DNA of 64,000 nucleotides, taken from Eubacteriales bacterium (lineage in GTDB: Bacteria > Bacillota > Clostridia > Oscillospirales > CAG-272). The notes under the pieces were generated by a model, which saw nothing but the letters and a program-made list of their open reading frames with translations, had not been told where the DNA came from and ran no database searches. Made by a program: the position numbers and the translations under genes. Location: positions 1,202-65,201 of the forward strand of contig JAZRQR010000130.1 of NCBI GenBank assembly GCA_045650025.1. The letters are read 5' to 3'. Of this stretch, positions 12,377-26,011 are shown in pieces. The stretch's first letter is position 1. Each line of letters begins with the position of its first letter.

Positions 12377-12405
12377 TTGACAAGCGAAATCGAGAGTGCT
12401 ATAAT
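12377..12405 (+). promoter_or_regulatory. Consensus sigmaA promoter of T-box leader 1
   Basis: TTGACA (12377-12382), 17 nt, TATAAT (12400-12405). Confidence 0.75.
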
Positions 12406-12411
12406 GTTTTC

Positions 12412-12705
12412 AAATTTGAATATCACAAACAACGACTGTGATGAAGAAGGTCGGAGCAAGATGCTTCCAGAGAGTTGTCGGGCGGTGCGAGACAATGGCA
12501 GATGCTTCCGTATGACCTATCACTTCTGAGTCGGAGGACCGAACGGCACGCATGCGCCCAGTAGACTCCTTCCGTATTGCTGCGTAAAGGCAAAGGACTT
12601 GACAGAGTCCGGAAAGTGACGGAGCTTGTTTCCGTAATTTGAGTGGTACCGCGGGTAATTTTGCTCGTCTCAAAGGGTTTCTTTTGAGGCGGGTGTTTTT
12701 GTTTT
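12412..12705 (+). promoter_or_regulatory. T-box riboswitch leader 1 (candidate specifier AUC, Ile)
   Basis: Stem I has a UGAUGA K-turn, an AGAGAG bulge (12469-12474) and a GGUGCGA distal loop (12484-12490). Specifier-loop candidate is AUC-A (12519-12522). T-box consensus AAUUUGAGUGGUACCGCGG lies at 12637-12655. Terminator hairpin CGTCTCAAAG/CTTTTGAGGCG plus U-run lies at 12664-12705. Confidence 0.85.
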
Positions 12706-12758
12706 ATTCAGATTTGTAATCATCCACGAGAATTTCAGAAATGAAAGGAGACAACAAA

Positions 12759-15032
12759 ATGGATTACAGTTTGAAAGAGGTTGCAGGCAGAATCAAGGAC
12801 CTGCGAGAGGCAAAGGGATATACCCCTGCTGAGCTGGCTAAGCTGACCGGCGTTACGGTGGAGGACTACCTGTTGCTGGAGCAGGGCGAGACCGATTTCA
12901 GCTTCACCTTTATTTACAAGTGCGCCAAGGCGTGCGACGTAGAAGTAGTCGACCTTCTGGAAGGCCGAAGCACTACGCTGACCTCCTTTGCGATTACCAG
13001 ACGCGGCGAGGGCTTGAAGATTCTCAAGCAGCACGGCGTGGAATACAATAACTTAGCGCCCAAGTTCAAGGACAAGCTCGCAGAGCCCTTCCTTGTGAAG
13101 TTCCCCTATATTCCCGAGGAGCAGAATGCACCCATGAAGCTCAACTCGCACAACGGTCAGGAATTCGACGTTATCGTGCGCGGCTCTCTCAAGGTGCAGG
13201 TCGGCAACCACGTGGACATTCTGCACGAGGGTGACTCGATCTTCTACAACAGCTTGATCCCCCACGGCATGATCGCGGTCAGCGAGGGCGGCTGTGACTT
13301 CCATGCAGTCGTGCTCAATCCCCAGGACGGTCTGGTCAGCGAGGAGTACCCCGAAGCGCCCGTTGCCACCGCGCCCAAGGCAACCGCGCAGACCGTTGGC
13401 ACCGAGACCGTGGCAGACAACTTTGTAGAGTCCTACTACGATGAAAACGGCGTTTTCAACGGCATCAAGTTCAAGAACGCCGATAAGTTCAACTTTGCAT
13501 TTGACTGCGTAGACGCCATTGCACAAAAGACGCCCGATAAGCTGGCGATGATGTGGGTGGCAAACGATAAGACCGACCGCCGCTTTACCTTCAGCGATAT
13601 GAAGAAGTACTCGGCAAAAACCGCCAACTACTTTGAATCCCTTGGCATCAAGCGCGGCGACAAGGTCATGCTGGTGCTCAAGCGTCATTACCAGTTCTGG
13701 TTCTGCATGCTGGCGCTGCACAAGATCGGTGCTGTCGCCATCCCCGCAACCAACCAGTTAGTTGCGCACGACTTTGAATACCGCTACCAGGCGGCAAACG
13801 TCAAGGCAATCGTTTGCACCGCGGATGGAGAGGTTTCCACCGAGGCAGACAAGGCTGCTGCAGAGTATCCGGGCCTGCTTAAGATCATGGTAGGCGGTCA
13901 GAAACCCGGCTGGCATGACTTCAACGTGGAAATGGAGCGCTTCAGCACTCACTACTTCCGCACCGAGAACAGCCCCTGCGGCGATGATCCCATGCTCATG
14001 TTCTTCACCTCCGGCACGACCGGCTACCCCAAGATCGCAGCGCACAGCTACAAGTACGCGCTGGGTCACTACCCCACCGCCAAGCATTGGCACAACGTCA
14101 AGCCCGGCGGTCTGCACTTCACCATTTCGGACACCGGCTGGGGTAAGGCACTCTGGGGCAAGCTGTACGGTCAGTGGCTGTGCGAGGCAGCAACCTTTAC
14201 CTATGACTTTGACAGATTCCGCTCCGAGGACATTCTGCCTATGTTTGCCAAGTACGGCATCACCACCTTCTGCGCACCTCCCACCATGTACCGTTTCTTT
14301 ATCAAGGAGGATCTTTCCAAGTACGATCTCTCCTCGATCCAATACGCCACCACGGCAGGCGAAGCACTCAACCCCGAGGTATTCAGCCAGTTCAAGAAGG
14401 CAACCGGCCTGACCATTATGGAAGGCTTTGGTCAGACCGAGACCACGCTCTCGATCGCCAACTTTGTGGGCACTACGCCCAAGATCGGCTCGATGGGTCG
14501 TCCCAGCCCCCTGTACGATATCGTACTGCTGGATCCCGACGGCAATCCCTGTCCTACGGGTGACACGGGCGAGATCTGCATCCGCGTCAAGGACGACGTT
14601 CCCTGCGGCTTGTTCATCGGCTATTATCAGGACGAGGAAAAGACCCGCGACGTATGGCACGACGGCTATTACCACACAGGCGACCAGGCAACCATGGACG
14701 AGGACGGCTACCTCTGGTTTGTCGGACGTATTGACGACGTTATCAAGTCGTCCGGTTACCGCATCGGCCCGTTCGAGATCGAAAGCGTGATCATGGAGCT
14801 GCCCTACGTGCTGGAATGCGGCGTTAACGCGGCTCCCGATGAGATCCGCGGTCAGGTGGTCAAGGCAAGCATTGTGCTGACCAAGGGCACCGAGCCCACG
14901 GAGGCGCTTAAGAAGGAGATCCAGGAATACGTCAAGTCGCGTACGGCTCCCTATAAGTACCCGCGTATCGTGGTCTTCCGCGATGAGCTGCCCAAAACCA
15001 TCAGCGGTAAAATTATACGAAACAAGCTTTGA
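12759..15032 (+). CDS. XRE-HTH + cupin + AMP-forming (medium-chain type) acyl-CoA ligase fusion, paralogue 1
   Basis: N-terminal HTH (TPAELAKLTGVTVEDYLLLEQG), cupin (GDSIFYNSLIPHGM), then a ligase core (FTSGTTGYPK, SSGYRIGPFEIES, PKTISGKI). Start set at ATG 12759 behind AAAGGAG; the track start is 12741. Confidence 0.9.
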   Translation: MDYSLKEVAGRIKDLREAKGYTPAELAKLTGVTVEDYLLLEQGETDFSFTFIYKCAKACDVEVVDLLEGRSTTLTSFAITRRGEGLKILKQHGVEYNNLAPKFKDKLAEPFLVKFPYIPEEQNAPMKLNSHNGQEFDVIVRGSLKVQVGNHVDILHEGDSIFYNSLIPHGMIAVSEGGCDFHAVVLNPQDGLVSEEYPEAPVATAPKATAQTVGTETVADNFVESYYDENGVFNGIKFKNADKFNFAFDCVDAIAQKTPDKLAMMWVANDKTDRRFTFSDMKKYSAKTANYFESLGIKRGDKVMLVLKRHYQFWFCMLALHKIGAVAIPATNQLVAHDFEYRYQAANVKAIVCTADGEVSTEADKAAAEYPGLLKIMVGGQKPGWHDFNVEMERFSTHYFRTENSPCGDDPMLMFFTSGTTGYPKIAAHSYKYALGHYPTAKHWHNVKPGGLHFTISDTGWGKALWGKLYGQWLCEAATFTYDFDRFRSEDILPMFAKYGITTFCAPPTMYRFFIKEDLSKYDLSSIQYATTAGEALNPEVFSQFKKATGLTIMEGFGQTETTLSIANFVGTTPKIGSMGRPSPLYDIVLLDPDGNPCPTGDTGEICIRVKDDVPCGLFIGYYQDEEKTRDVWHDGYYHTGDQATMDEDGYLWFVGRIDDVIKSSGYRIGPFEIESVIMELPYVLECGVNAAPDEIRGQVVKASIVLTKGTEPTEALKKEIQEYVKSRTAPYKYPRIVVFRDELPKTISGKIIRNKL

Positions 15033-15049
15033 TTTTTCGTGTGATTTTT

Positions 15050-15075
15050 TGCAGGTTTCACAAACAAAACTTGCA
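15050..15075 (+). terminator. Weak hairpin between the two ligase transcription units
   Basis: TGCAGGTTT / AAAACTTGCA stem (one G-U) with a poor U-tract. Confidence 0.3.
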
Positions 15076-15083
15076 GAAATTTC

Positions 15084-15112
15084 TTGACACGAAAAGCACA
15101 TTATGATATAAT
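15084..15112 (+). promoter_or_regulatory. Consensus sigmaA promoter of T-box leader 2
   Basis: TTGACA (15084-15089), 17 nt, TATAAT (15107-15112). Confidence 0.75.
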
Positions 15113-15118
15113 AATAAG

Positions 15119-15426
15119 TAATTTCTTGAAAAAGGCAATGACGAAAAATTCACGGGATTTGCGCATTTTACAGAGAGTCGGCGGCAGGTGTGTGCCGTCA
15201 GTACGCGCCCTTGATCTGATTTCCGAGCCGAGGGAAGAACGCATATGTCCGCCGACAAACGACATGGTTATTAGACCCCTCCGTACCCGCCGCGTTAAGG
15301 CATGGATGTTCCCCGCTTTCGTGGGATAACGCATCCGCAAAGTGGCGCTCTGCGCAATTTGAGTGGTACCGCGGACATGATATTCTTGCCCGTCTCAAGT
15401 CAGCTTGAGACGGGCATGCTTTTTTT
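15119..15426 (+). promoter_or_regulatory. T-box riboswitch leader 2 (candidate specifier CUG, Leu)
   Basis: AAUGA K-turn, AGAGAG (15172-15177), GGUGUG distal loop (15187-15192). Specifier candidate is CUG-A (15216-15219). T-box consensus AAUUUGAGUGGUACCGCGG lies at 15356-15374. Terminator GCCCGTCTCAAG/CTTGAGACGGGC plus U-run lies at 15388-15426. Confidence 0.85.
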
Positions 15427-15463: not shown

Positions 15464-17746
15464 ATGAGTAATCTGACAGGACTTGAACAGAAAATAGTCG
15501 AAATGGCGGCGCGTATCCGCGAGCTGCGTGAGATCGAGGGTCTGAGCGTTGCCTATATGGCAAACGCCGCAGGCGTCAGCCAGGAGGAATACTTGGATTG
15601 CGAGGCGGGTAAGCACGACCTCAACTTCGCATTTATTTACCGCTGCGCACAGGCGTTGCGCGTGGACGTGACCGAGATTATCGAAGGCTCTGCGCCCAAG
15701 CTGCAGACCTATACCCTGACCCGCCGCGGTGCAGGTCAGAAGATCGAGCAGGCGCACGGCATGAACTATTACAACATGGCGTACACCTTCAAGAGCCGTA
15801 TAGCAGAGCCCCTGTTCGTGCGCGCGACCTACAGCGCCGAAGCTGAGAACGCGCCCATTGCCGTGACCAGCCACCAGGGCCAGGAATGCGATATCGTCAT
15901 TGATGGTCGCCTGAAGGTCCAGATCGGCGATCACGTGGAGATCCTGAGCGCGGGCGATACCATTTACTACGACTCGTCCATCCCCCACGGTATGGTTGCC
16001 GTTGGCGGTAAGGACTGTACCTTCTACGCCATCGTGCTTGACCCCGATGCAGCCGAGCAGATCAAGGCGGTTGAGGTCGGTGCGGCGCCCAAGCTGACCG
16101 TGCGCGACGATCAGAAGCGCGTATGGCAGAATTTCGTGGACGTGACCGAAAACGAGCAAGGCATTCTGCAATCCCTCTCCTTCAAGAATACCGAGCACTT
16201 TAACTTTGCATACGATATCATCGACACGCTGGGCCGCGAGAAGCCCGATAAGCTGGCGATGCTGCACATTGCACAGGACATGACCGAGAGACGCTTCTCG
16301 TTCGGCGACATCAAGCGCGCCTCCTCCCAGTGTGCCAACTACTTCAAGTCGCTGGGCATCAAGAGAGGCGACCGCGTCATGCTGATCTGTAAGCGTCACT
16401 ACCAGTTCTGGTTCTCCATGCTGGCGCTGCACAAGATTGGTGCTGTGGCAATCCCCGCCTCCAACCAGCTGCAGGAGCACGACCTTTCCTACCGCTTTGG
16501 TGCGGCAGGCATCAGCGCCATCATCTGCACCGCAGACGGTGACGTGGCTCGTCAGGTAGAGCTTGCCGAGCAGGGCTGCCCCACGCTAACTGCCAAGATC
16601 CTGATCGGCGGCGAACGCGAGGGCTGGCGCAACTTTGACGCCGAATATTCCCTGTTCAGCGGCAAGTGGGAGCGCGACGAAAACTCCCCCGGCGGCGACG
16701 ACCTGATGCTCATGTTCTTTACCTCGGGCACGACGGGGTATCCCAAGATCGCAGCGCACAGCTACAAGTACGCGCTGGGTCACTTCCATACCGCAAAATA
16801 CTGGCATTGCGTAGACCCCGAGGGTCTGCACCTGACCATTTCCGACACCGGCTGGGCAAAGGCAATGTGGGGTAAGATGTACGGTCAGTGGCTGTGCGAG
16901 GCGGCAACCTTTGTATACGACTTTGACCCCTTTGACGCATCCGTCATTCTTCCCATGTTTGCAAAGCACCACATCACCACCTTCTGTGCTCCCCCCACCA
17001 TGTACCGCATGATGATCAAGCAGGATCTGACCAAGTACGATCTTTCCTCGGTCAAGCATGCAGCCATTGCGGGCGAGGCACTCAACCCCGAGGTCTACCA
17101 CCGCTTCAAGCAGCTTACGGGTCTGGAGCTCATGGAAGGCTTTGGTCAGTCCGAGACCACGCTGGTGATCGGTAACCTGGTCGGCATGACGCCCAAGATC
17201 GGCTCTATGGGCAAGCCCGTTCCCTTGTATGACGTCAGCATCGTGGATCCCGACGGCAATCCCGTTGGAGTGGGCGAGAGCGGCGAGATCGTCATTCGCA
17301 CCGATATTGAGCATCCCAACGGTCTGTTCCAGGGCTACTACAACGCTCCCGAGAAGACCGCAGAGGTATGGCACGACGGCTACTACCACACCGGTGACGT
17401 GGCATGGCGCGACGAGGACGGCTACTACTGGTACGTCGGCCGCGTGGATGACGTTATCAAGTCCTCCGGTTACCGTATTGGCCCGTTTGAGATCGAGAGC
17501 GTCATCATGGAGCTGCCTTACGTACTGGAATGCGGCGTCAGCGCAGCACCCGATGAAATTCGCGGCCAGGTCGTTAAGGCAAGCATCGTGCTCACGGGCG
17601 GCAAGCAGCCCTGTGAGGAGCTTAAGAAAGAAATTCAGGCGTACGTCAAGTCGCGTACCGCCCCCTATAAATACCCCAGAATCGTGGTCTTCTGCGAAAG
17701 CCTGCCCAAAACTACCAGCGGCAAGATCATTCGTAACAAGCTGTAA
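15464..17746 (+). CDS. XRE-HTH + cupin + AMP-forming acyl-CoA ligase fusion, paralogue 2
   Basis: 760 aa, colinear with 12759-15032 over its full length with the same motifs. AAGGAG RBS upstream of ATG 15464. Confidence 0.9.
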   Translation: MSNLTGLEQKIVEMAARIRELREIEGLSVAYMANAAGVSQEEYLDCEAGKHDLNFAFIYRCAQALRVDVTEIIEGSAPKLQTYTLTRRGAGQKIEQAHGMNYYNMAYTFKSRIAEPLFVRATYSAEAENAPIAVTSHQGQECDIVIDGRLKVQIGDHVEILSAGDTIYYDSSIPHGMVAVGGKDCTFYAIVLDPDAAEQIKAVEVGAAPKLTVRDDQKRVWQNFVDVTENEQGILQSLSFKNTEHFNFAYDIIDTLGREKPDKLAMLHIAQDMTERRFSFGDIKRASSQCANYFKSLGIKRGDRVMLICKRHYQFWFSMLALHKIGAVAIPASNQLQEHDLSYRFGAAGISAIICTADGDVARQVELAEQGCPTLTAKILIGGEREGWRNFDAEYSLFSGKWERDENSPGGDDLMLMFFTSGTTGYPKIAAHSYKYALGHFHTAKYWHCVDPEGLHLTISDTGWAKAMWGKMYGQWLCEAATFVYDFDPFDASVILPMFAKHHITTFCAPPTMYRMMIKQDLTKYDLSSVKHAAIAGEALNPEVYHRFKQLTGLELMEGFGQSETTLVIGNLVGMTPKIGSMGKPVPLYDVSIVDPDGNPVGVGESGEIVIRTDIEHPNGLFQGYYNAPEKTAEVWHDGYYHTGDVAWRDEDGYYWYVGRVDDVIKSSGYRIGPFEIESVIMELPYVLECGVSAAPDEIRGQVVKASIVLTGGKQPCEELKKEIQAYVKSRTAPYKYPRIVVFCESLPKTTSGKIIRNKL

Positions 17747-18408
17747 TGAAGCAAAAACGCATTACCTTGTTCGTGGGACATTACGGCAGCGGAAAAACCA
17801 ATCTGGCAGTCAATTACGCCATGCACTTGCACAGGCAGGGTGAGCGCGTGGTGCTGGCAGATATGGACATCGTTAACCCCTACTTCCGCTCCAAGGACAG
17901 CGAAGACGAGCTGCAAGCGCTCGGCATTCAAACGCTCTCCTCCCCTTACGCCAACACCAATCTGGACGCACCCGCCATGCCCGCTTCGTTTTACGGCATC
18001 TTTGAGCACAAGGATCGCCTGGCGGTGCTTGACGTGGGCGGCGATGACCGCGGCGCGGTGGCGCTGGGCAGATACGTGCCCATGATACGCGAGGAGAACG
18101 ACTTTGAAATGATCTTTGTTGCCAACGCCTATCGCGCGCTGACCCCCGACCCCGAGGACGCCCTTGAGGTGCTGCGCGAGATCGAGCATGCCTGCAAGCT
18201 GCCCGTGACCGCCATTGCCAACAACTCCCACTTGGGCGAATTTACCGATGCGGACACCGTGCTCTCCTCCCAAGGCTACGTGCAAAAGCTTTGCGAGCTG
18301 ACCGGGCTGCCGCTGGTGATGACCGCCTTTGAAGAGCGTCTGGCGTCCGAGCTGGCGCATCGCGTGCAAAACCCCTTCCCCATTACCCTACAGAAGAAAT
18401 ATTATTGA
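17746..18408 (+). CDS. MinD/ParA/CooC-class (SIMIBI) P-loop NTPase
   Basis: Deviant Walker A GHYGSGKT close to the N-terminus; DMDIVNP and VGGD motifs. Its start overlaps the ligase stop (TAATG). Confidence 0.7.
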   Translation: MKQKRITLFVGHYGSGKTNLAVNYAMHLHRQGERVVLADMDIVNPYFRSKDSEDELQALGIQTLSSPYANTNLDAPAMPASFYGIFEHKDRLAVLDVGGDDRGAVALGRYVPMIREENDFEMIFVANAYRALTPDPEDALEVLREIEHACKLPVTAIANNSHLGEFTDADTVLSSQGYVQKLCELTGLPLVMTAFEERLASELAHRVQNPFPITLQKKYY

Positions 18409-18432: not shown

Positions 18433-18639
18433 ATGGCAAAACTCACTATTGACGTCGAGAGATGCAAGGGCTGCGGACTTTGCGTGGCAAACTGTCCCAA
18501 AAAGCTTTTGCACATCGCCAAAGACAAAATCAACTCCAAGGGCCATTGCCCTGCCCAAATCACCGATGAATCCGCCTGCGTGGGCTGCGCAAGCTGCGCT
18601 CTGATCTGCCCGGACTGCGTGATCACGGTAGAAAGATAA
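18433..18639 (+). CDS. 2-oxoacid:ferredoxin oxidoreductase delta subunit (2x[4Fe-4S] ferredoxin)
   Basis: 68 aa with CKGCGLCVANCP and CVGCASCALICP cluster motifs. Confidence 0.85.
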   Translation: MAKLTIDVERCKGCGLCVANCPKKLLHIAKDKINSKGHCPAQITDESACVGCASCALICPDCVITVER

Positions 18640-18652
18640 GGAGGAGCGAAAC

Positions 18653-19711
18653 ATGTCTGATAAGGTACTTATGAAAGGCAATGAAGCCATTGCCGAGGCT
18701 GCTATTATGGCAGGCTGCCGTCACTATTTCGGCTACCCCATCACCCCCCAGACCGAAATTGCGGCATACATGGCAAAAAAGATGCCCAAGATCCGCGGCT
18801 GCTTCCTGCAGGCTGAAAGCGAGATCGCTGCTATCAACATGGTCTACGGCGTTGCCGCTACGGGCAAGAGAGTTATGACCTCTTCGTCCTCCCCCGGAAT
18901 CTCGCTGAAAAGCGAGGGCATTTCCTACTTGGCAGGCGCTGACCTGCCTGCGCTGATCGTCAACGTCCAGCGCGGCGGCCCCGGCCTTGGCGGTATCCAG
19001 CCCTCTCAGTCCGATTATTTCCAGGCAACCCGCTCCTGCGGTCACGGCGACTTCCACCTGATCGTGCTGGCTCCCAGCTCGGTACAGGAAATGGCAGAGC
19101 TGACCGTTAAGGGCTTTGACCTTGCCGACAAATACCGCATGACCTCCATGATCCTTGCCGACGGTACTATGGGTCAGATGATGGAGCCCGTCTCGCTTGC
19201 CGACATCAAGCCCACCACGGTGGAAAAGCCCTGGGCGGTCACCGGTACCAAGCTGGAGAGAAAGCACAATATCGTCAACTCGCTCTCCTTGATTCCCGAG
19301 GAGCTCGAGCAGCAGAACTTTGACCGCTTCGACCGCTACCGCCTGGTAGAAGAGAACGAGGTCATGTACGAGGAATTTATGATGGAGGATGCAGAGATCT
19401 GCATCGCGGCATTCGGTATTGCCGCTCGCGTTTCCAAGAACGCAGTCATCGCTGCCCGCGAGATGGGCATCAAGGTGGGTATGATCCGTCCCATCACGCT
19501 CTGGCCCTTCCCCAAGCAGGCGTTCCGTAAGGCCGCCGATCAGGTTAAGGCATTTATTTCGGTCGAGCTGTCCATGGGACAGATGATCGACGACATTCGT
19601 CTTGCCGAGGAATGCATTCGTCCCGTATATCTGTGCAACAGAGCGGGCGGTATGATCCCCTCTCCCGAACAGGTACTGGCAAGCATTCAAAGCATTGCAG
19701 GAGGTAACTGA
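18653..19711 (+). CDS. 2-oxoacid:ferredoxin oxidoreductase alpha subunit
   Basis: MKGNEAIAEAAIMAGCRHYFGYPITPQTEI is the typical POR/VOR/KOR alpha N-terminus. 352 aa. Confidence 0.9.
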   Translation: MSDKVLMKGNEAIAEAAIMAGCRHYFGYPITPQTEIAAYMAKKMPKIRGCFLQAESEIAAINMVYGVAATGKRVMTSSSSPGISLKSEGISYLAGADLPALIVNVQRGGPGLGGIQPSQSDYFQATRSCGHGDFHLIVLAPSSVQEMAELTVKGFDLADKYRMTSMILADGTMGQMMEPVSLADIKPTTVEKPWAVTGTKLERKHNIVNSLSLIPEELEQQNFDRFDRYRLVEENEVMYEEFMMEDAEICIAAFGIAARVSKNAVIAAREMGIKVGMIRPITLWPFPKQAFRKAADQVKAFISVELSMGQMIDDIRLAEECIRPVYLCNRAGGMIPSPEQVLASIQSIAGGN

Positions 19712-19713
19712 TC

Positions 19714-20475
19714 ATGGTAGTTTTCAAAAGACCGCACGCACTTGCGGATATGACCATGCATTACTGCCCCGGCTGCACGCACGGTATTGTGCACAGACTG
19801 GTGGCTGAGGTCATGGACGAGCTTGGCATTGAGGGTAAAACGGTAGGCGTTGCGCCCGTCGGCTGCTCGGTTATGGCATATAACTATTTCAATTGCGATA
19901 TGGTGGAGGCTGCACACGGACGCGCTCCCGCCGTTGCAACCGGACTTAAGAGAGCCAACCCCGAAAACGTGGTATTCACCTATCAGGGTGACGGCGACCT
20001 TGCTTCCATCGGTATGGCAGAGACGGTACACGCCGCTGCACGTAACGAGAATATTACCGTTATTTTCATCAACAACGCCATCTACGGCATGACCGGCGGT
20101 CAGATGGCTCCCACCTCGCTGCCCGGTCAGGTCACCCAGACCTCTCCCTACGGCAGAGATACCGATCATTGCGGCTTCCCCGTTAAGGTTTCCGAGATGC
20201 TCTCGCAGCTGGAAGGCCCGCAGTACATCGAGCGCGTTGCCGTCACCAGCGTTGCAGGCATCCGCAAGGCGAAGAAGGCGATCCTCAAGGCGTTCCAGAA
20301 TCAGGTGGATGGCAAGGGCTTTTCGCTGGTTGAGGTCATCTCCACCTGCCCGACCAACTGGGGCATGACGCCCGAAAAGGCAATGCAGTGGGCTAACGAG
20401 AACATGCTGCCCTACTATCCTCTGGGCGTATACCGTGACCGCGATGCACAGAAGAAGGAGGACGCACAGGCATGA
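19714..20475 (+). CDS. 2-oxoacid:ferredoxin oxidoreductase beta subunit (TPP-binding)
   Basis: YCPGCTHG plus GDGD...NN..YGMTGGQ TPP motif. 253 aa. Confidence 0.9.
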   Translation: MVVFKRPHALADMTMHYCPGCTHGIVHRLVAEVMDELGIEGKTVGVAPVGCSVMAYNYFNCDMVEAAHGRAPAVATGLKRANPENVVFTYQGDGDLASIGMAETVHAAARNENITVIFINNAIYGMTGGQMAPTSLPGQVTQTSPYGRDTDHCGFPVKVSEMLSQLEGPQYIERVAVTSVAGIRKAKKAILKAFQNQVDGKGFSLVEVISTCPTNWGMTPEKAMQWANENMLPYYPLGVYRDRDAQKKEDAQA

Positions 20476-21011
20476 AAACCTTACAGATGTTGATTGCAGG
20501 CTTTGGTGGCCAGGGCGTTCTGTTCCTTGGCAAGATCGTGGCGTATCAGGGTCTGATTGCCGATAAACAGGTCAGCTGGCTGCCCTCCTACGGCCCCGAA
20601 ATGCGCGGCGGTACGGCAAACTGCTCCATTATCGTAAGCGACACCCCCGTCGGCTCGCCCATCGTGGCTACCCCCGACTGTCTGGTTGCCATGAACCTGC
20701 CCTCGCTTGACAAGTACGAGGCAGCCGTCGTGCCCGGCGGTAAGATCTTTGTGGACAGCACGCTGATCACCCGTAAGATCGAGCGCGAGGACGTAGACGC
20801 ATACTACATTCCCGCAACCCAGATTGCCAACGAGATGGGCATTCCCACGCTGGCAAACATGATCATTCTCGGCAAGGTGCTTGCCGAATACCCCGAGCTT
20901 GGCATGGAGTACCTGGAAGCCGCTATGGGCAAGGTCGTCAGCGCCAAGAGAGCCAACCTGATCGAGCAGAATCTGAACGCCATCAAGCTGGGCTACGAAT
21001 ACAAGGCTTAA
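20472..21011 (+). CDS. 2-oxoacid:ferredoxin oxidoreductase gamma subunit
   Basis: [12 protein letters not shown]...[12 protein letters not shown] motif. ATGA overlap with the beta subunit gene. Confidence 0.9.
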
Positions 21012-21023
21012 GGAGATATTGCC

Positions 21024-22091
21024 ATGTTGGATATCAAAATCATTGAAAACGAGCAGACCTGGGAGCTTCCCGAGGACAGCAAGCTCGGCTTTGGCAGATA
21101 CTTTACCAACCACATGTTCATGATGGACTATAACAAGCAAGAGGGCTGGCACAATGCGCGCATCGTGCCCTTTGGCACCATTGCGCTGCACCCCGCTGCT
21201 ACCGTGCTGCACTACGGCGCGGAGATCTTTGAGGGGCTTAAGGCTTACCGCCGCCTGTCCGACGGCAAGGTGCAGATGTTCCGTCCCATGGAAAACATTC
21301 GCCGCATGAACGTCAGCGCAGAAAGGCTGTGCCTGCCCACCATTCCCGAAGAGGATGCGCTGCAGTGCTACACCGAATTTGTGCGCCACGAGCAGGCTTG
21401 GGTCCCTCACACCGAGGGCACCTCGCTCTACATCCGCCCCTTTATGTTCGGTAACGACCCCTACCTTGGCGTACACGGCGTAAACGAAGCAGTCTTTATG
21501 ATCATCGCTTCCCCCAGCGGCTCCTATTACAAGGAGGGCATCAACCCCGTTAAGATCATGATCGAGGGTGAGGACGTCCGCGCTGTCAAGGGTGGCACGG
21601 GTCACATCAAGTGCGGCGGCAACTACGCTGCCAGCACCAGAGCCGGCGACAAGGCTGAAAAGCAGGGTTACTCGCAGGTGCTTTGGCTGGACGGCGTGGA
21701 GCGCAAGTACATCGAAGAAGTCGGCGCGATGAACGTTATGTTCAAGATCGACGGCGAAATTGTCACCCCCGCGCTGACCGGCTCGATTTTGCCCGGTATT
21801 ACCAGAAAGTCCTGCCTGGAGGTGCTGCGTGACGCAGGCTATTCTGTCAGCGAGCGCCGTATCAGCGTAGACGAGCTGATCGAGGCTGCACAGACAGGCA
21901 AGCTGGAAGAGGCTTGGGGTACCGGCACGGCAGCAGTTGTTTCCCCCATTGGCGAGCTTTGCTACGGCGGCGTTCGCTACCCCGTCAGCGGCGGCAAGAT
22001 CGGCGCTGTCACCCAGTCCCTGTACGATACCCTGACCGGTATTCAATGGGGCAAGATCCAGGATACCAAGGGATGGATCTTAGAAATCTAA
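21024..22091 (+). CDS. ilvE: Branched-chain amino acid aminotransferase (fold type IV)
   Basis: 355 aa. FGRYFTNHMF, EIFEGLKAY, and GTGHIKCGGNYAAS...GTGTAAVVSP, typical of the long BCAT subclass. Confidence 0.9.
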   Translation: MLDIKIIENEQTWELPEDSKLGFGRYFTNHMFMMDYNKQEGWHNARIVPFGTIALHPAATVLHYGAEIFEGLKAYRRLSDGKVQMFRPMENIRRMNVSAERLCLPTIPEEDALQCYTEFVRHEQAWVPHTEGTSLYIRPFMFGNDPYLGVHGVNEAVFMIIASPSGSYYKEGINPVKIMIEGEDVRAVKGGTGHIKCGGNYAASTRAGDKAEKQGYSQVLWLDGVERKYIEEVGAMNVMFKIDGEIVTPALTGSILPGITRKSCLEVLRDAGYSVSERRISVDELIEAAQTGKLEEAWGTGTAAVVSPIGELCYGGVRYPVSGGKIGAVTQSLYDTLTGIQWGKIQDTKGWILEI

Positions 22092-22109: not shown

Positions 22110-23513
22110 ATGCGCAATCTCATTATTAACGATATCACTCTCTGCACAAAGCTTGCCGCAGACCAGCTCTCGTTCCGCGAAAAGGTGCAGGCTGCCAGAT
22201 TGCTGGGCAAGATGCACGTCTCGCAGATCACGCTGCCCCAGATCAAGAGCCACAAGGCAGACGCGCTGCTGGCGCGCACCGTAGCGTCGGTCATTACCGA
22301 CACGGTGCTCTGCGCACGCGTCAAGCACGACGGCTCGGATGCCGAGGAGGTATACGCCTCGATCAGCGCGGCAAAGAACAAAAAGCTCGCGCTGGCGCTA
22401 CCCACCTCGCAGGCACAGCTGGAGTTCTTATATCACATCAAGCCCGCAAACGCAGCGGGGACCGTGCAAAAGGGTATTTCTGCGGCACGCGCGCTGTGCG
22501 AAAACGTGGAATTCGTGGCGGAGGACGCCATTCGCGGCGACTATGCCATTCTGACCGGCTGCATCAAGGCAGCGATCGAGGCAGGTGCAACCACCGTCAC
22601 CATCTGCGATCCCGAGGGCTATGCCCTGCCCGCAGATATGATCGTTTTTGTACAAAAGCTCAAGGCTGACGTACCCGAGCTGGCAAACGTCACGCTGGGT
22701 CTTTCCTGCTCGGACGCTTGCGGTCTGGCGCTTGCCACCGTACTGGAATCTCTCTCTGCAGGCGTTGGACAGATCGATCTGTGCTGCGCAGGCAATCAGG
22801 CACCGAGCACCGCTGCAACGCTTTCCATTCTCGCGCAGAGATCCGAGGCGCTGGGCGTGAGCACCTGCGTACTCTACACCGAGGCAAAGACCTGCGCTGC
22901 CGATACCGCACGCCTGTTTGACAAAAAGGCAAGCGGCAAGCTGGATACCGCGCTTGCTACCGAGGGGGAGGGCCTGGTTCTGGACGCAAACGTAGACAAG
23001 CACACCGTGCTTGCCGAGGTGGCAAAGCTGGGCTACACGCTTTCCGCCGAGGACGCTAACCGCGTATACGAGGAATGCAAGAGCATCGCGCAGAGCAAGA
23101 CCATTGGCTCGCGCGAGCTGGACACCATTGTGGCAGCCGTTGCCATGCAGGTGCCCTCTACCTATAAGCTGGTCACCTACGTGATCAATAGCGGTAACAC
23201 CTTCTCCTCCTCTGCGCACATCACCGTGGCAAAGGGCGAAAAGACGCTGCAGGCGATCTCCCTGGGCGACGGTCCGATCGACGCTGCCTTCAAGGCGCTG
23301 GAGCAGATCGTTGGCCACCACTACGAGCTGGACGATTTCCAGATCCACGCCGTGACCGAGGGTCGCGAGGCAGTTGGCTCTGCGCTGGTCAAGCTGCGCT
23401 CCGAGCGCGGTCTGCAGGCAGGCCAGGGCGTTTCCACCGACATCATCGGTGCGTCCATCCGCGCATATCTGGATGCGCTCAACAAGATCGTATATGAGGA
23501 GGCACTGGCGTGA
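22110..23513 (+). CDS. 2-isopropylmalate/citramalate synthase-like protein with degenerate catalytic motifs
   Basis: Colinear with the HMGL-like TIM barrel plus LeuA-dimer domain. The C-terminal domain is conserved (GDGPIDAAFKALEQIVG, STDIIGASIRAYLDALNKI). The RDGEQ-type and HxH motifs are replaced (ITLCTKLAADQ; LSCSDACG). Confidence 0.75.
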   Translation: MRNLIINDITLCTKLAADQLSFREKVQAARLLGKMHVSQITLPQIKSHKADALLARTVASVITDTVLCARVKHDGSDAEEVYASISAAKNKKLALALPTSQAQLEFLYHIKPANAAGTVQKGISAARALCENVEFVAEDAIRGDYAILTGCIKAAIEAGATTVTICDPEGYALPADMIVFVQKLKADVPELANVTLGLSCSDACGLALATVLESLSAGVGQIDLCCAGNQAPSTAATLSILAQRSEALGVSTCVLYTEAKTCAADTARLFDKKASGKLDTALATEGEGLVLDANVDKHTVLAEVAKLGYTLSAEDANRVYEECKSIAQSKTIGSRELDTIVAAVAMQVPSTYKLVTYVINSGNTFSSSAHITVAKGEKTLQAISLGDGPIDAAFKALEQIVGHHYELDDFQIHAVTEGREAVGSALVKLRSERGLQAGQGVSTDIIGASIRAYLDALNKIVYEEALA

Positions 23514-26011
23514 AGCTCTCGTTTTCCAACAGAAAATGGACGGCATGTTCCTATGCCGACCTGCTTTCCCTGTGCGATGCCACGGGTATGCAGGGTCTGG
23601 AGCTTTATGACGTTGCCGATACCTTAGGTGCGCCCGGTCAGCCCTTTGACGCTTCGTGCGCCAGAAGCACGCTGCACACGCTGATCGACCGCCGCATCAC
23701 CCCCGTTTGTTTTGATACATCTGCCGATATTTCTGCCCCCGATGGAGAGGCTTGCGTGCAAACGCTGCGCTCCTACATCGCACTGGCGGCTGCCTTCCGC
23801 GTTCCTTACGTCCGCGTGCACACGCGCACCGACGGCACGGATTGCTTTGATATCGTTTGCAACAATATCGCGCCTCTCTTGCCCTATGCGCAGGAAATGG
23901 GCGTTACGCTGCTGCTGGAGACGGCAGGATGCTTTGCGCATACCGATTCGCTGCGCGAGATCCTCAACCGCTTTGCAAGTGACAGCCTGGGCGCGCTTTG
24001 GGATATGTACAACACCTGCCTTGTGGCAGGCGAGTCGCCCGAGACCACCATTACCAACCTGGGCGCTTACGTCAAGCACGTCCACGTGCGCGACGCCAAG
24101 AATGGCGAATACTGCTTTATGGGCGAGGGCGACCTGCCCATGACGGACCTGATCCGTGCACTCTCCTCGGTCAACTACGACGGCTTTATCTCGCTGGAGT
24201 GGGATCCCGCCTGGATCGCGGACATTGACGATCCCGAGATCATTCTGACCCAGTTTGCCACCTACATGGAGCGTTTTTTCGACACCTCACGTGCGCAGGA
24301 CCACCTCTATGATAACAACGCGCACACGGGTAAGTACGTGTGGAAAAAGGACACGCTGATCGACATGACCTTCTCGCAGGTACTGGACCGCATGGTCGAG
24401 CTGTTCCCCGACCAGTATGCCTTCAAGTACACCACGCTCAACTACACCAGAACCTACGCACAGTTCCGCCGCGACGTGGACAAGTGCGCACGTGCCCTGC
24501 TCTCGCTGGGCGTTCGTCCGGGCAGCCACGTAGCAGTTTGGGCAACCAACGTGCCCGAGTGGTATATCGCCTTCTGGGCGGTGACCAAGATCGGCGCGGT
24601 GCTGGTTTCCATGAATACCGCTTACAAGATCCACGAAGCAGAATACCTCCTGCGTCAGTCCGATACCCACACGCTGATCATGGTAGACGGCTACCGTGAC
24701 TCCAACTACCGTGCCATCATTCGCGAGCTTTGCCCTGAAATGGAGACCACGCCCGCAGGCGAGGCGCTGCATTGCAAGCGCTTGCCCTTCTTGCGCCGCG
24801 TGATCACCTGCGGCTTTGAGGAAAAGGGCGCTTTGACCTGGGAGCAGGCGATGACCTACTCGAACGGTACCCCCCGCGAGGAGCTTGCCCGCGTGGCAGC
24901 CGGCGTTTCTCCGCACGACGTCTGCAACATGCAGTACACCTCGGGCACGACCGGATTCCCCAAAGGCGTTATGCTGACGCACTACAACATTGTCAACAAC
25001 GGTAAGTGCATCGGCGACCGCATGGATCTTTCCACCGCCGACCGCATGATGATTCAGGTGCCCATGTTCCATTGCTTTGGCATGGTGCTTGCAATGACCG
25101 CATCCATGACGCACGGCGTTTCGATCTACCCGCTGCCCTACTTCTCTCCCCGTCCTGCTCTGGCGTGCATTCACCAGGAGCGCATTACCGCATTCCATGG
25201 CGTACCCACCATGTTCATTGCCCTGCTCGAGCACCCCGATTTTGCCAAGACCGACTTCTCGCACGTACGTACCGGCATTATGGCAGGCAGCCCCTGCCCC
25301 ATTTCGGTCATGCGCGACGTGGTAGACAAGATGCACATGAGCGAGATCACCATCGTGTACGGTCAGACCGAGGCGTCTCCCGGCTGCACCATGTCCTCGA
25401 CCAACGACCCGCTTGAGGTGCGCGTTGGTACGGTTGGACGCGCCCTGCCCGAGATCGAGTGCAAGGTAGTCGACCCCGAAACCGGTGAGGAGATGCCCGT
25501 TGGTCAGAACGGCGAGTTCGTAGCCCGCGGCTATAACATTATGAAAGGATATTACAAGATGCCCCGCGCAACCGCTGCCGCCATTGACAAGGACGGCTGG
25601 CTGCACACGGGTGACCTTGCTGCCATGACCGAGGACGGAAACTTCCGTATCACCGGTCGACTCAAGGATATGATCATCCGCGGCGGCGAGAACATCTATC
25701 CCAAGGAGATCGAGGAATTCATTTATACCCATCCCAAGGTCAAGGACGTACAGGTCATCGGCGTGCCCGATGAGCAGTATGGCGAGGAAATTATGGCTTG
25801 CATCATCCTCAAGGAGGGTGAGAGTATGACCGAAAAGGAAATGAAGGGCTATATTCTCGATCACATGGCGCGCCACAAGGTGCCCAAGTACATTGATTTT
25901 GTGGATTCCTTCCCCATGAACGTGGCTGGCAAGATCCTCAAATACAAGATGCGCGAGGACGCCGTCAAAAAGCTGGGTCTGCAAAAGGCTGACAGCATTG
26001 TGACCGCGTAA
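23510..26011 (+). CDS. Xylose-isomerase-like TIM-barrel domain fused to an AMP-forming acyl-CoA ligase (FadD-like)
   Basis: 833 aa. The N-terminal ~260 aa is an AP_endonuc_2/sugar-phosphate-isomerase-like barrel (LLLETAG, HVHVRDA, ISLEWD). The C-terminus has YTSGTTGFPKGV, GEFVARGYNIMKGYY and GRLKDMIIRGGENIYP. GTG start overlaps the upstream stop (GTGA). Confidence 0.85.
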   Translation: MKLSFSNRKWTACSYADLLSLCDATGMQGLELYDVADTLGAPGQPFDASCARSTLHTLIDRRITPVCFDTSADISAPDGEACVQTLRSYIALAAAFRVPYVRVHTRTDGTDCFDIVCNNIAPLLPYAQEMGVTLLLETAGCFAHTDSLREILNRFASDSLGALWDMYNTCLVAGESPETTITNLGAYVKHVHVRDAKNGEYCFMGEGDLPMTDLIRALSSVNYDGFISLEWDPAWIADIDDPEIILTQFATYMERFFDTSRAQDHLYDNNAHTGKYVWKKDTLIDMTFSQVLDRMVELFPDQYAFKYTTLNYTRTYAQFRRDVDKCARALLSLGVRPGSHVAVWATNVPEWYIAFWAVTKIGAVLVSMNTAYKIHEAEYLLRQSDTHTLIMVDGYRDSNYRAIIRELCPEMETTPAGEALHCKRLPFLRRVITCGFEEKGALTWEQAMTYSNGTPREELARVAAGVSPHDVCNMQYTSGTTGFPKGVMLTHYNIVNNGKCIGDRMDLSTADRMMIQVPMFHCFGMVLAMTASMTHGVSIYPLPYFSPRPALACIHQERITAFHGVPTMFIALLEHPDFAKTDFSHVRTGIMAGSPCPISVMRDVVDKMHMSEITIVYGQTEASPGCTMSSTNDPLEVRVGTVGRALPEIECKVVDPETGEEMPVGQNGEFVARGYNIMKGYYKMPRATAAAIDKDGWLHTGDLAAMTEDGNFRITGRLKDMIIRGGENIYPKEIEEFIYTHPKVKDVQVIGVPDEQYGEEIMACIILKEGESMTEKEMKGYILDHMARHKVPKYIDFVDSFPMNVAGKILKYKMREDAVKKLGLQKADSIVTA

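Follow-up and report, generated by a model that had tools for sequence, protein, structure and literature searches.

We analysed a 64-kb stretch of DNA (64,000 nucleotides, hereafter the window) from contig JAZRQR010000130.1 of an Eubacteriales bacterium, in which two T-box leaders each precede an acyl-coenzyme A (CoA) ligase gene. An earlier note, made from the letters of this DNA, had proposed that the two leaders carry different specifier codons and wire the two paralogous ligases to different amino acids. All features described here lie on the forward strand. Leader 1 (12429-12675), of the Ile type, precedes ligase 1 (12741-15032; 763 amino acids), and leader 2 (15129-15400), of the Leu (CUG) type, precedes ligase 2 (15464-17746; 760 amino acids). 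The ligases are 61% identical, and Pfam and NCBIfam matches give both a helix-turn-helix (HTH), a cupin and an AMP-binding acyl-CoA synthetase domain; in a tree of the family, ligase 1 falls in a clade wired to isoleucine and ligase 2 in a clade that is wired to valine elsewhere. We observed the N-terminal module of XRE-type HTH and cupin (approximately 230 amino acids; 12741-13430 and 15464-16150) in every ligase of the family.

Anatomy of the leaders and the genes behind them

A default Rfam scan of the 64-kb window reported no T-box and returned a tRNA as its sole match; the window holds a single tRNA gene, tRNA-Ser(UGA) at 1891-1978. In the E-value mode of Rfam, at full model length, RF00230 matched leader 1 with 78.4 bits (E 1.5e-16) and leader 2 with 61.2 bits (E 3.8e-12). 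Both scores lie below the gathering score of 93 bits, and the leaders were therefore missed by the default scan. Neither this mode nor a custom Stem I covariance model, R1, found a third T-box in the window. Most ligase-type leaders in related genomes also score below the Rfam gathering score (80.2 and 92.3 bits for the two at locus L086), and routine annotation would overlook such leaders. The CUC leader of the LeuA-like gene at the same locus reaches 112 bits, above the gathering score, and has a canonical GAA S-turn.

Each leader has its own promoter with an extended TG, and both promoters matched the sigma-70 consensus, against which they were scored, at 12 of 12 positions: 12377-12405 for leader 1 (TTGACA-17-TATAAT) and 15084-15112 for leader 2. 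The T-box sequence AAUUUGAGUGGUACCGCG is common to both leaders. The antiterminator bulge reads UGGU in each, as the earlier note had found (12644-12647 and 15364-15367), and is able to pair with the ACCA of a tRNA 3' end. In both leaders, the antiterminator with this bulge competes with an intrinsic terminator. In leader 1, the terminator (12662-12705) consists of a 15-pair hairpin at 12662-12695 followed by the T-run TTTTTGTTTT, and in leader 2 (15387-15426) of a 13-pair hairpin at 15387-15416, eight of whose pairs are GC, followed by the T-run TGCTTTTTTT.

Stem I was located with R1 at 12434-12532 in leader 1 (90.8 bits) and at 15134-15229 in leader 2 (45.7 bits). Both contain a UGA...GAG kink-turn (K-turn), a 4-bp lower helix, an AGAGAG bulge and a GGUG distal loop. 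Regarding the 5' strand of the lower helix, GAAA at 15143-15146 in leader 2 agrees with the earlier note, which for leader 1 had named AGAAG at 12445-12449; this strand is better read as GAAG at 12443-12446 (or at 12446-12449, GAAGAAG being ambiguous). One non-Watson-Crick position (U.U or C.C) separates the lower helix from the K-turn GA in both leaders. The specifier loop of ligase leaders is small, five nucleotides (N-codon-R) on its 3' side facing two to three on its 5' side, and the specifier-loop S-turn (loop E; AGUA/GAA) is absent; the "GAC" or "GAU" that Rfam aligns to GAA is base-paired in the upper helix. We also observed that the 10-nt sequence AGATGCTTCC occurs on both Stem I strands of leader 1 (12459-12468 and 12500-12509); being a direct repeat, the two copies are unable to pair together, and the region is variable among relatives.

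By their sequence and structural features, both leaders can be classed as class-I transcriptional T-boxes. They share with RF00230 and the class-I T-boxes of Bacillota (B. subtilis tyrS, glyQS and the CUC leader of ilv-leu) the K-turn, a specifier plus purine 5' of the lower helix, the AG bulge, the distal loop, a Stem II with S-turn, the T-box sequence with its UGGN bulge, the mutually exclusive terminator and a location upstream of amino-acid-related genes. They differ in their scores below the gathering score, in the reduced specifier loop without an AGUA/GAA S-turn, and in the genes downstream, which encode acyl-CoA ligases and a 2-oxoacid:ferredoxin oxidoreductase (OFOR), not aminoacyl-tRNA synthetases, ilv-leu enzymes or transporters.

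Leader 1 is predicted to control ligase 1 only, and leader 2 a ten-gene operon that would run from ligase 2 through a third ligase. Between the ligase 1 stop codon and the leader 2 promoter lies an AT-rich hairpin of 13 pairs with a T-rich tail (15046-15079), which may end the leader-1 transcript and keep the two units apart. Genes behind ligase 2 are spaced by at most 25 nt, and the operon ends near 26011, after which a new promoter follows. Its members encode a P-loop protein (17746-18408; 220 amino acids); a 68-amino-acid ferredoxin (18433-18639), recognised as an open reading frame with two CxxCxxCxxxCP motifs, i.e. two [4Fe-4S] motifs, and likely the OFOR delta subunit; the VorB, thiamine pyrophosphate (TPP)-binding beta and gamma subunits of the OFOR (18653-21011; Pfam POR_N, TPP_enzyme_C and POR), with VorB scoring 530.6 bits, above its NCBIfam cut-off; and a class II branched-chain amino acid aminotransferase of the ilvE type (BCAT; 21024-22091; 465.7 bits, above the NCBIfam cut-off). 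The P-loop protein, which has weak CbiA/ParA/NUBPL-like matches, is conserved throughout the family at this place, after the second ligase and before the oxidoreductase genes, and could be an iron-sulfur maturation factor.

Two further genes complete the operon. The first (22110-23513; 467 amino acids) has HMGL-like and LeuA_dimer domains and its own CUC T-box in relatives. Its best NCBIfam score against the LeuA (2-isopropylmalate synthase) equivalog is 238.9, below the cut-off of 532, as it is below those of all 2-isopropylmalate synthase families, and it is therefore named LeuA-like only; its PDB matches are 2-isopropylmalate synthase catalytic domains (E 1e-22). The second (23510-26011) encodes a TIM barrel (AP_endonuc_2) fused to an AMP-binding acyl-CoA ligase, hereafter TIM::AMP, which is a candidate Leu-side ligase by its domains and its Leu T-box context in relatives. 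The barrel is xylose-isomerase-like, and the gene travels with the LeuA-like gene behind a CUC T-box in at least 21 loci (L007, L012, L018, L086, L172 and others). Inspection of the flanking genes in the window revealed no leuBCD genes near the cluster; the flanks (HPr kinase, CAAX protease and others) are unrelated. The earlier note had placed the shared OFOR/BCAT module under the Leu-type leader, and we confirmed that in the window it lies behind that leader, in the same operon as ligase 2. This module, which is also needed for making isoleucine from 2-methylbutyrate, stands outside leader 1 control, and likewise throughout the family.

Specifier codons and their placement

In both leaders, a triplet on the 3' side of the specifier loop is followed by a purine and names an amino acid that matches the pathway: AUC at 12519-12521, then A12522, in leader 1, and CUG at 15216-15218, then A15219, in leader 2. 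The specifier of leader 1 is an Ile codon and that of leader 2 a Leu codon, and the paralogous ligases are accordingly predicted to be wired to different tRNAs, in line with the earlier proposal. Three methods agreed on this placement, namely the Rfam model, a parse anchored on the K-turn, and R1. In the alignment to the Rfam covariance model, the helix strand CUUC of leader 1 is immediately preceded by AUC-A and the UUUC of leader 2 by CUG-A; the earlier note had read the same triplets by hand, and no other triplet was placed there.

R1 was built from 21 Ile-type sequences and run over the window and 240 related loci. Its structure was specified by the analyst because RNAalifold, applied to a MAFFT alignment of mixed classes, failed to recover Stem I; it returned the distal helix alone, the classes differing by one column in the 5' loop. 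The Stem I alignment of 118 distinct homologues has 94.5% of its cells paired, compared with 47-49% when the partners are slid by one column, and compensatory changes occur in 20 of the 20 pairs; this alignment is model-fitted and leans towards the imposed structure, a concern that the slide control and the independent Rfam placement lessen. At locus L086, RF00230 placed AUC, GUA and CUC at identical model positions in the three leaders, and throughout the family the triplet is always a codon for a branched-chain amino acid, with an invariant middle U. CTG accounts for 57% of the Leu codons in the operon and ATC for 65% of the Ile codons. CUG is likewise unchanged in contigs from four bovine-gut metagenome runs, one of them just approximately 87% identical over Stem I.

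By contrast, the antiterminator bulge carries no information on the amino acid. A discriminator A is common to tRNA-Ile, tRNA-Leu and tRNA-Val, so that UGGU fits all three alike, and UGGUACC is found in 252 of 252 family leaders with the T-box bulge motif. The fit to tRNA-Ile and tRNA-Leu that the earlier note had pointed out is real, but it does not discriminate.

We considered whether the true specifier of leader 2 might be the overlapping AUC at 15214-15216, in which case both leaders would sense tRNA-Ile. AUCUG is indeed kept as a block in all four leaders known to carry CUG before a ligase, and in two odd Ile-type leaders (L193, AAUCAGA; L143, AAUCAAAU) AUC lies 2-3 nt further from the lower helix. 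However, in each of the four CUG leaders A15214 is paired with U15150, and the pairs beside it covary (CG in three and UA in one; GC in three and AU in one), leaving a five-nucleotide 3' loop, U-CUG-R, of the same form as the U/C-AUC-R and U-GUA-R loops of the other classes. The Rfam model picks CUG, and in the AUC register the next base would be U and not a purine. We regard this alternative as extremely improbable and retain CUG as the specifier of leader 2.

The two odd leaders (L193:2707-2807 and L143:3009-3110) are Ile-type ligase leaders with enlarged 3' specifier loops (ACGAACAAUCAGA and ACGACAAUCAAAU). They hold two to three extra bases between AUC-A and the lower helix, and a rule based on a fixed offset consequently miscalls their codon as CAG or AAA.

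Specifiers and ligase clades in related genomes

A genome scan with ligase 1 returned at least 80 loci from metagenome-assembled genomes (MAGs) of ruminant-gut Clostridia at 83-94% identity, nearly all with a T-box upstream; locus counts here and below are among the matches listed, and the relatives are incomplete MAGs. In 75 Stem I sequences aligned with MAFFT, ATC is invariant, preceded by two variable bases (CT, TT or CC) and followed by A, G or C, and the lower helix shows covariation, as GAAG/CTTC or GAGG/CCTC. The scan with ligase 2 gave a handful of close orthologues (83-95%) and many relatives at 65-71% identity, which stand in tandem behind an Ile-type ligase and in which the CUG column of leader 2 reads GUA, less often GUC. 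All close relatives are MAGs of ruminant or gut Clostridia. A metagenome scan with ligase 2 found no orthologue above 80% identity, and hence no new CUG leaders, and widened the family.

Combining the specifier column of R1 with the identity of the downstream gene, we observed 249 leaders in front of HTH-cupin ligases, of which 153 carry ATC, 92 carry GTA or GTC, and four carry CTG (the window, L001, L002 and L082). CTC precedes the LeuA-like gene in 21 leaders and TIM::AMP in one (L018). CTG also serves as specifier before a LeuA-like gene in a single leader (L197), the homologous leader of L172 having CUC. The comparison of orthologous leaders suggested by the earlier note therefore turned out differently for the two codons, with AUC kept throughout its 153 leaders and CUG kept in only four, against GUA or GUC in 92 relatives. 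As judged from specifiers and gene content, the wider family consists of three units, in which an Ile T-box precedes a clade-I ligase, a Val T-box (GUA/GUC) precedes a clade-V ligase with the oxidoreductase and BCAT, and a Leu T-box (CUC) precedes the LeuA-like gene and the TIM::AMP ligase. Against this distribution, CUG in front of an HTH-cupin ligase is an oddity of one lineage. The earlier note contained neither the third ligase nor this wider Ile/Val/Leu pattern.

A neighbour-joining tree of 133 ligase representatives resolved into two distinct clades, one Ile-wired (61) and one Val-wired (71), with the ligase of the CUG leader nested inside the latter. Its identity to Val-wired ligases is 62-72%, within the range among Val-wired ligases themselves (59-100%). 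Only four positions separate the clades at a conservation of at least 90% (Ile/Val states: 60 K/R, 73 L/I, 112 K/R and 465 G/A), and at each of them the CUG lineage carries the Val-type residue, including Ala465. Nor does its catalytic domain show any substitution at positions that are at least 93% conserved in the Val clade. Three of the four clade-splitting residues (60, 73 and 112) are located in the HTH-cupin module, outside the catalytic domain, which hints at a class-specific ligand-binding or regulatory role. The idea that position 465 corresponds to the Trp414 motif of Acs was dropped, as the alignment to PDB 3ETC puts 465 in a different segment (SDTGW[G/A]K).

The catalytic domains of both ligases match those of MbcS from S. 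aureus and MacsMa from M. acetivorans best. MbcS (NF047394) is the best NCBIfam match, with 438.1 bits for ligase 1 and 432.9 bits for ligase 2, both below the equivalog cut-off of 850, and MacsMa (PDB 3ETC) is the best match among solved structures, with 616 bits. Both characterised enzymes prefer alpha-branched short acids: MacsMa prefers 2-methylbutyrate (PMC10455477), and MbcS works well on 2-methylbutyrate and isobutyrate but poorly on isovalerate (PMC10026030). The window ligases differ from them by the additional N-terminal HTH and cupin module of approximately 230 amino acids and by a context of amino-acid synthesis, not fatty-acid priming. At the equivalent of position 465, MacsMa has Gly, as does the Ile clade. 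From the specifiers and these relatives, we favour 2-methylbutyrate as the substrate of clade I and isobutyrate as that of clade V, and ligase 1 is probably a 2-methylbutyrate-CoA ligase. Of the pairing that the earlier note had called obvious, the Ile/2-methylbutyrate half is plausible because AUC is kept across the Ile-wired clade and MacsMa both prefers 2-methylbutyrate and shares Gly465.

The other half, ligase 2 as an isovalerate/Leu enzyme, is not supported; ligase 2 probably is no such enzyme, because its clade is under Val control in approximately 90 related genomes. In its strongest form, the proposal would be that ligase 2 diverged from the isobutyrate type to become a dedicated isovalerate-CoA ligase, with isovalerate converted through isovaleryl-CoA and 2-ketoisocaproate to leucine. 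The Leu codon of leader 2 favours it, as do private substitutions of the lineage, including T534A near the AGE motif and E616/H617, and the usual agreement between regulation and substrate in T-box regulons (PMC2494555). These are opposed by the nesting and identity values within the Val-wired clade, by the retention of Ala465 and the other three Val-class residues, by the unchanged conserved positions of the catalytic domain, and by MbcS, which hardly uses isovalerate. Moreover, the Leu T-boxes of relatives control a different ligase, TIM::AMP, which is present in the window operon too. We therefore consider a dedicated isovalerate enzyme unlikely, and prefer to see ligase 2 as an isobutyrate-type ligase under a changed leader.

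Probable re-specification of leader 2 and the predicted regulon

How a Leu codon may have come to stand before a Val-clade ligase is suggested by the arrangement of the downstream genes. Leu T-boxes in relatives precede the LeuA-like and TIM::AMP genes, and at L018 the CUC T-box lies directly before TIM::AMP. In GUA loci where the LeuA-like gene follows BCAT or VorC, a CUC T-box occupies the gap of 328-594 nt in six of six cases. By contrast, the gap between BCAT and the LeuA-like gene is 22-25 nt and contains no T-box in the four loci of the CUG lineage (the window, L081, L082 and L084; by its gene coordinates, the window gap is 18 nt); the "Val" and "Leu" units have therefore been fused in the window lineage, with one leader, CUG, left. 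In full-leader blastn comparisons, leader 2 scored a mean of 61-68 bits against ligase-type leaders and a mean of 36 bits against CUC leaders of the LeuA type, which weakly favours a change from GUN to CUG in place over a transplanted leader. Stem I identity was also tried as a guide to the descent of leader 2 from a Val, Ile or Leu leader, and it was unable to discriminate.

Two loci depart from this arrangement, L155, described below, and L143. At L143, the P-loop, Vor, BCAT and LeuA-like genes are preceded by a T-box of their own, whose loop reads UCUGAA. This T-box (L143:8418-8517; CUG plus an extra A) is additional to the Ile and Val leaders of the two ligases of L143, and may represent an independent case in which the oxidoreductase module came under Leu control.

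Collectively, these findings suggest, with a probability that we place moderately above even, that leader 2 is a Val leader that was re-specified to Leu together with operon fusion, that ligase 2 has remained of the isobutyrate type, and that leader 1 senses tRNA-Ile. Several observations weigh against this reading. The conservation of CUG is phylogenetically shallow, being confined to four closely related genomes. Fusion and switch do not always go together: at L155, whose leader reads GUC, the LeuA-like gene follows BCAT after 135 nt, and no T-box was detected in between. A looser threshold shows a few private changes in the catalytic domain of the CUG lineage, T534A lying two residues before the AGE motif, and given these private substitutions a change of substrate in ligase 2 is possible. 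Finally, positions 15193 and 15198 are T in the window but A in four bovine-gut metagenome runs and in L001, L002 and L082. With A at both positions, the distal loop takes the canonical GNGA form (GGUGUGAG) and the distal helix is freed of a U.U mismatch; leader 2 of the window may be slightly weakened, or both T's may be assembly errors.

The same two T's, which disrupt the distal loop of GNGA type together with one helix pair, bear on whether leader 2 is decaying or constitutively terminating, with CUG having arisen by neutral drift without a sensing role. Leader 2 has the lowest Rfam score, at 61.2 bits. However, it retains an intact promoter, K-turn, AG bulge, T-box sequence, antiterminator and terminator, the genes of its operon are intact too, and across four genomes whose Stem I sequences are 67-75% identical, CUG is kept together with the whole leader, with compensatory changes in five of the eight upper-helix pairs. 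Drift in a decaying leader thus appears highly improbable to us, and a functional, re-specified leader 2 remains the preferred reading. A search for RNA-seq runs with the window sequence found none; the runs with it were DNA metagenomes only.

From the elements above, we infer the tRNA bound by each leader, the direction of the switch and its metabolic rationale as follows. Each leader would be transcribed from its own consensus promoter, and Stem I, a long element that comprises the basal K-turn, the reduced specifier loop, the AG bulge and the distal loop, would form in the nascent RNA. Pairing would take place between the specifier codon and the tRNA anticodon; if the tRNA is uncharged, its ACCA end would pair with UGGU of the antiterminator bulge and permit read-through, and if it is charged, the terminator would form. 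AUC in leader 1 is predicted to sense tRNA-Ile, such that isoleucine limitation would raise ligase 1. CUG in leader 2, the dominant Leu codon of the operon genes, is predicted to sense tRNA-Leu, and leucine limitation would open the leader and raise ligase 2, the oxidoreductase and ferredoxin, BCAT, the LeuA-like protein and the third ligase. Isobutyryl-CoA, the presumed product of ligase 2, would then be reductively carboxylated to 2-ketoisovalerate and passed through the LeuA-like enzyme to leucine, while in parallel the TIM::AMP ligase could supply isovalerate directly to the leucine route. Valine sensing has apparently been lost from the window locus.

The conversion of isoacids into branched-chain amino acids by reductive carboxylation belongs to the classical physiology of rumen anaerobes. 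The predicted gene content fits this pathway, from acid to acyl-CoA (ligase), to 2-oxoacid (VOR-type OFOR with ferredoxin) and to amino acid (BCAT). Paralogous leaders with different specifiers are already known, as are changes of specifier during evolution. In the literature searched, we found no description of T-box control of a cluster of ligase, oxidoreductase and BCAT, and no assignment of genes for isoacid assimilation or of their control.

In summary, we tentatively propose, with somewhat less than even confidence, that gut and rumen Clostridia possess a regulon of three ligases and three T-boxes, which would convert 2-methylbutyrate, isobutyrate and isovalerate to Ile, Val and Leu by reductive carboxylation and in which the specifier would predict the substrate. 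The window would represent a natural re-specification from Val to Leu with fusion of units, by which isobutyrate-derived 2-ketoisovalerate would be re-routed to leucine, and it provides a clear natural case in which the specifier of an orthologous leader has changed. Fibre-degrading rumen bacteria have long been known to need isoacids, which are used as feed additives. T-box specifiers would provide a label, read from sequence alone, for the three ligase types (Ile, Val and Leu) across hundreds of uncultured genomes, thereby reducing the assignment of substrates to a handful of enzyme assays.

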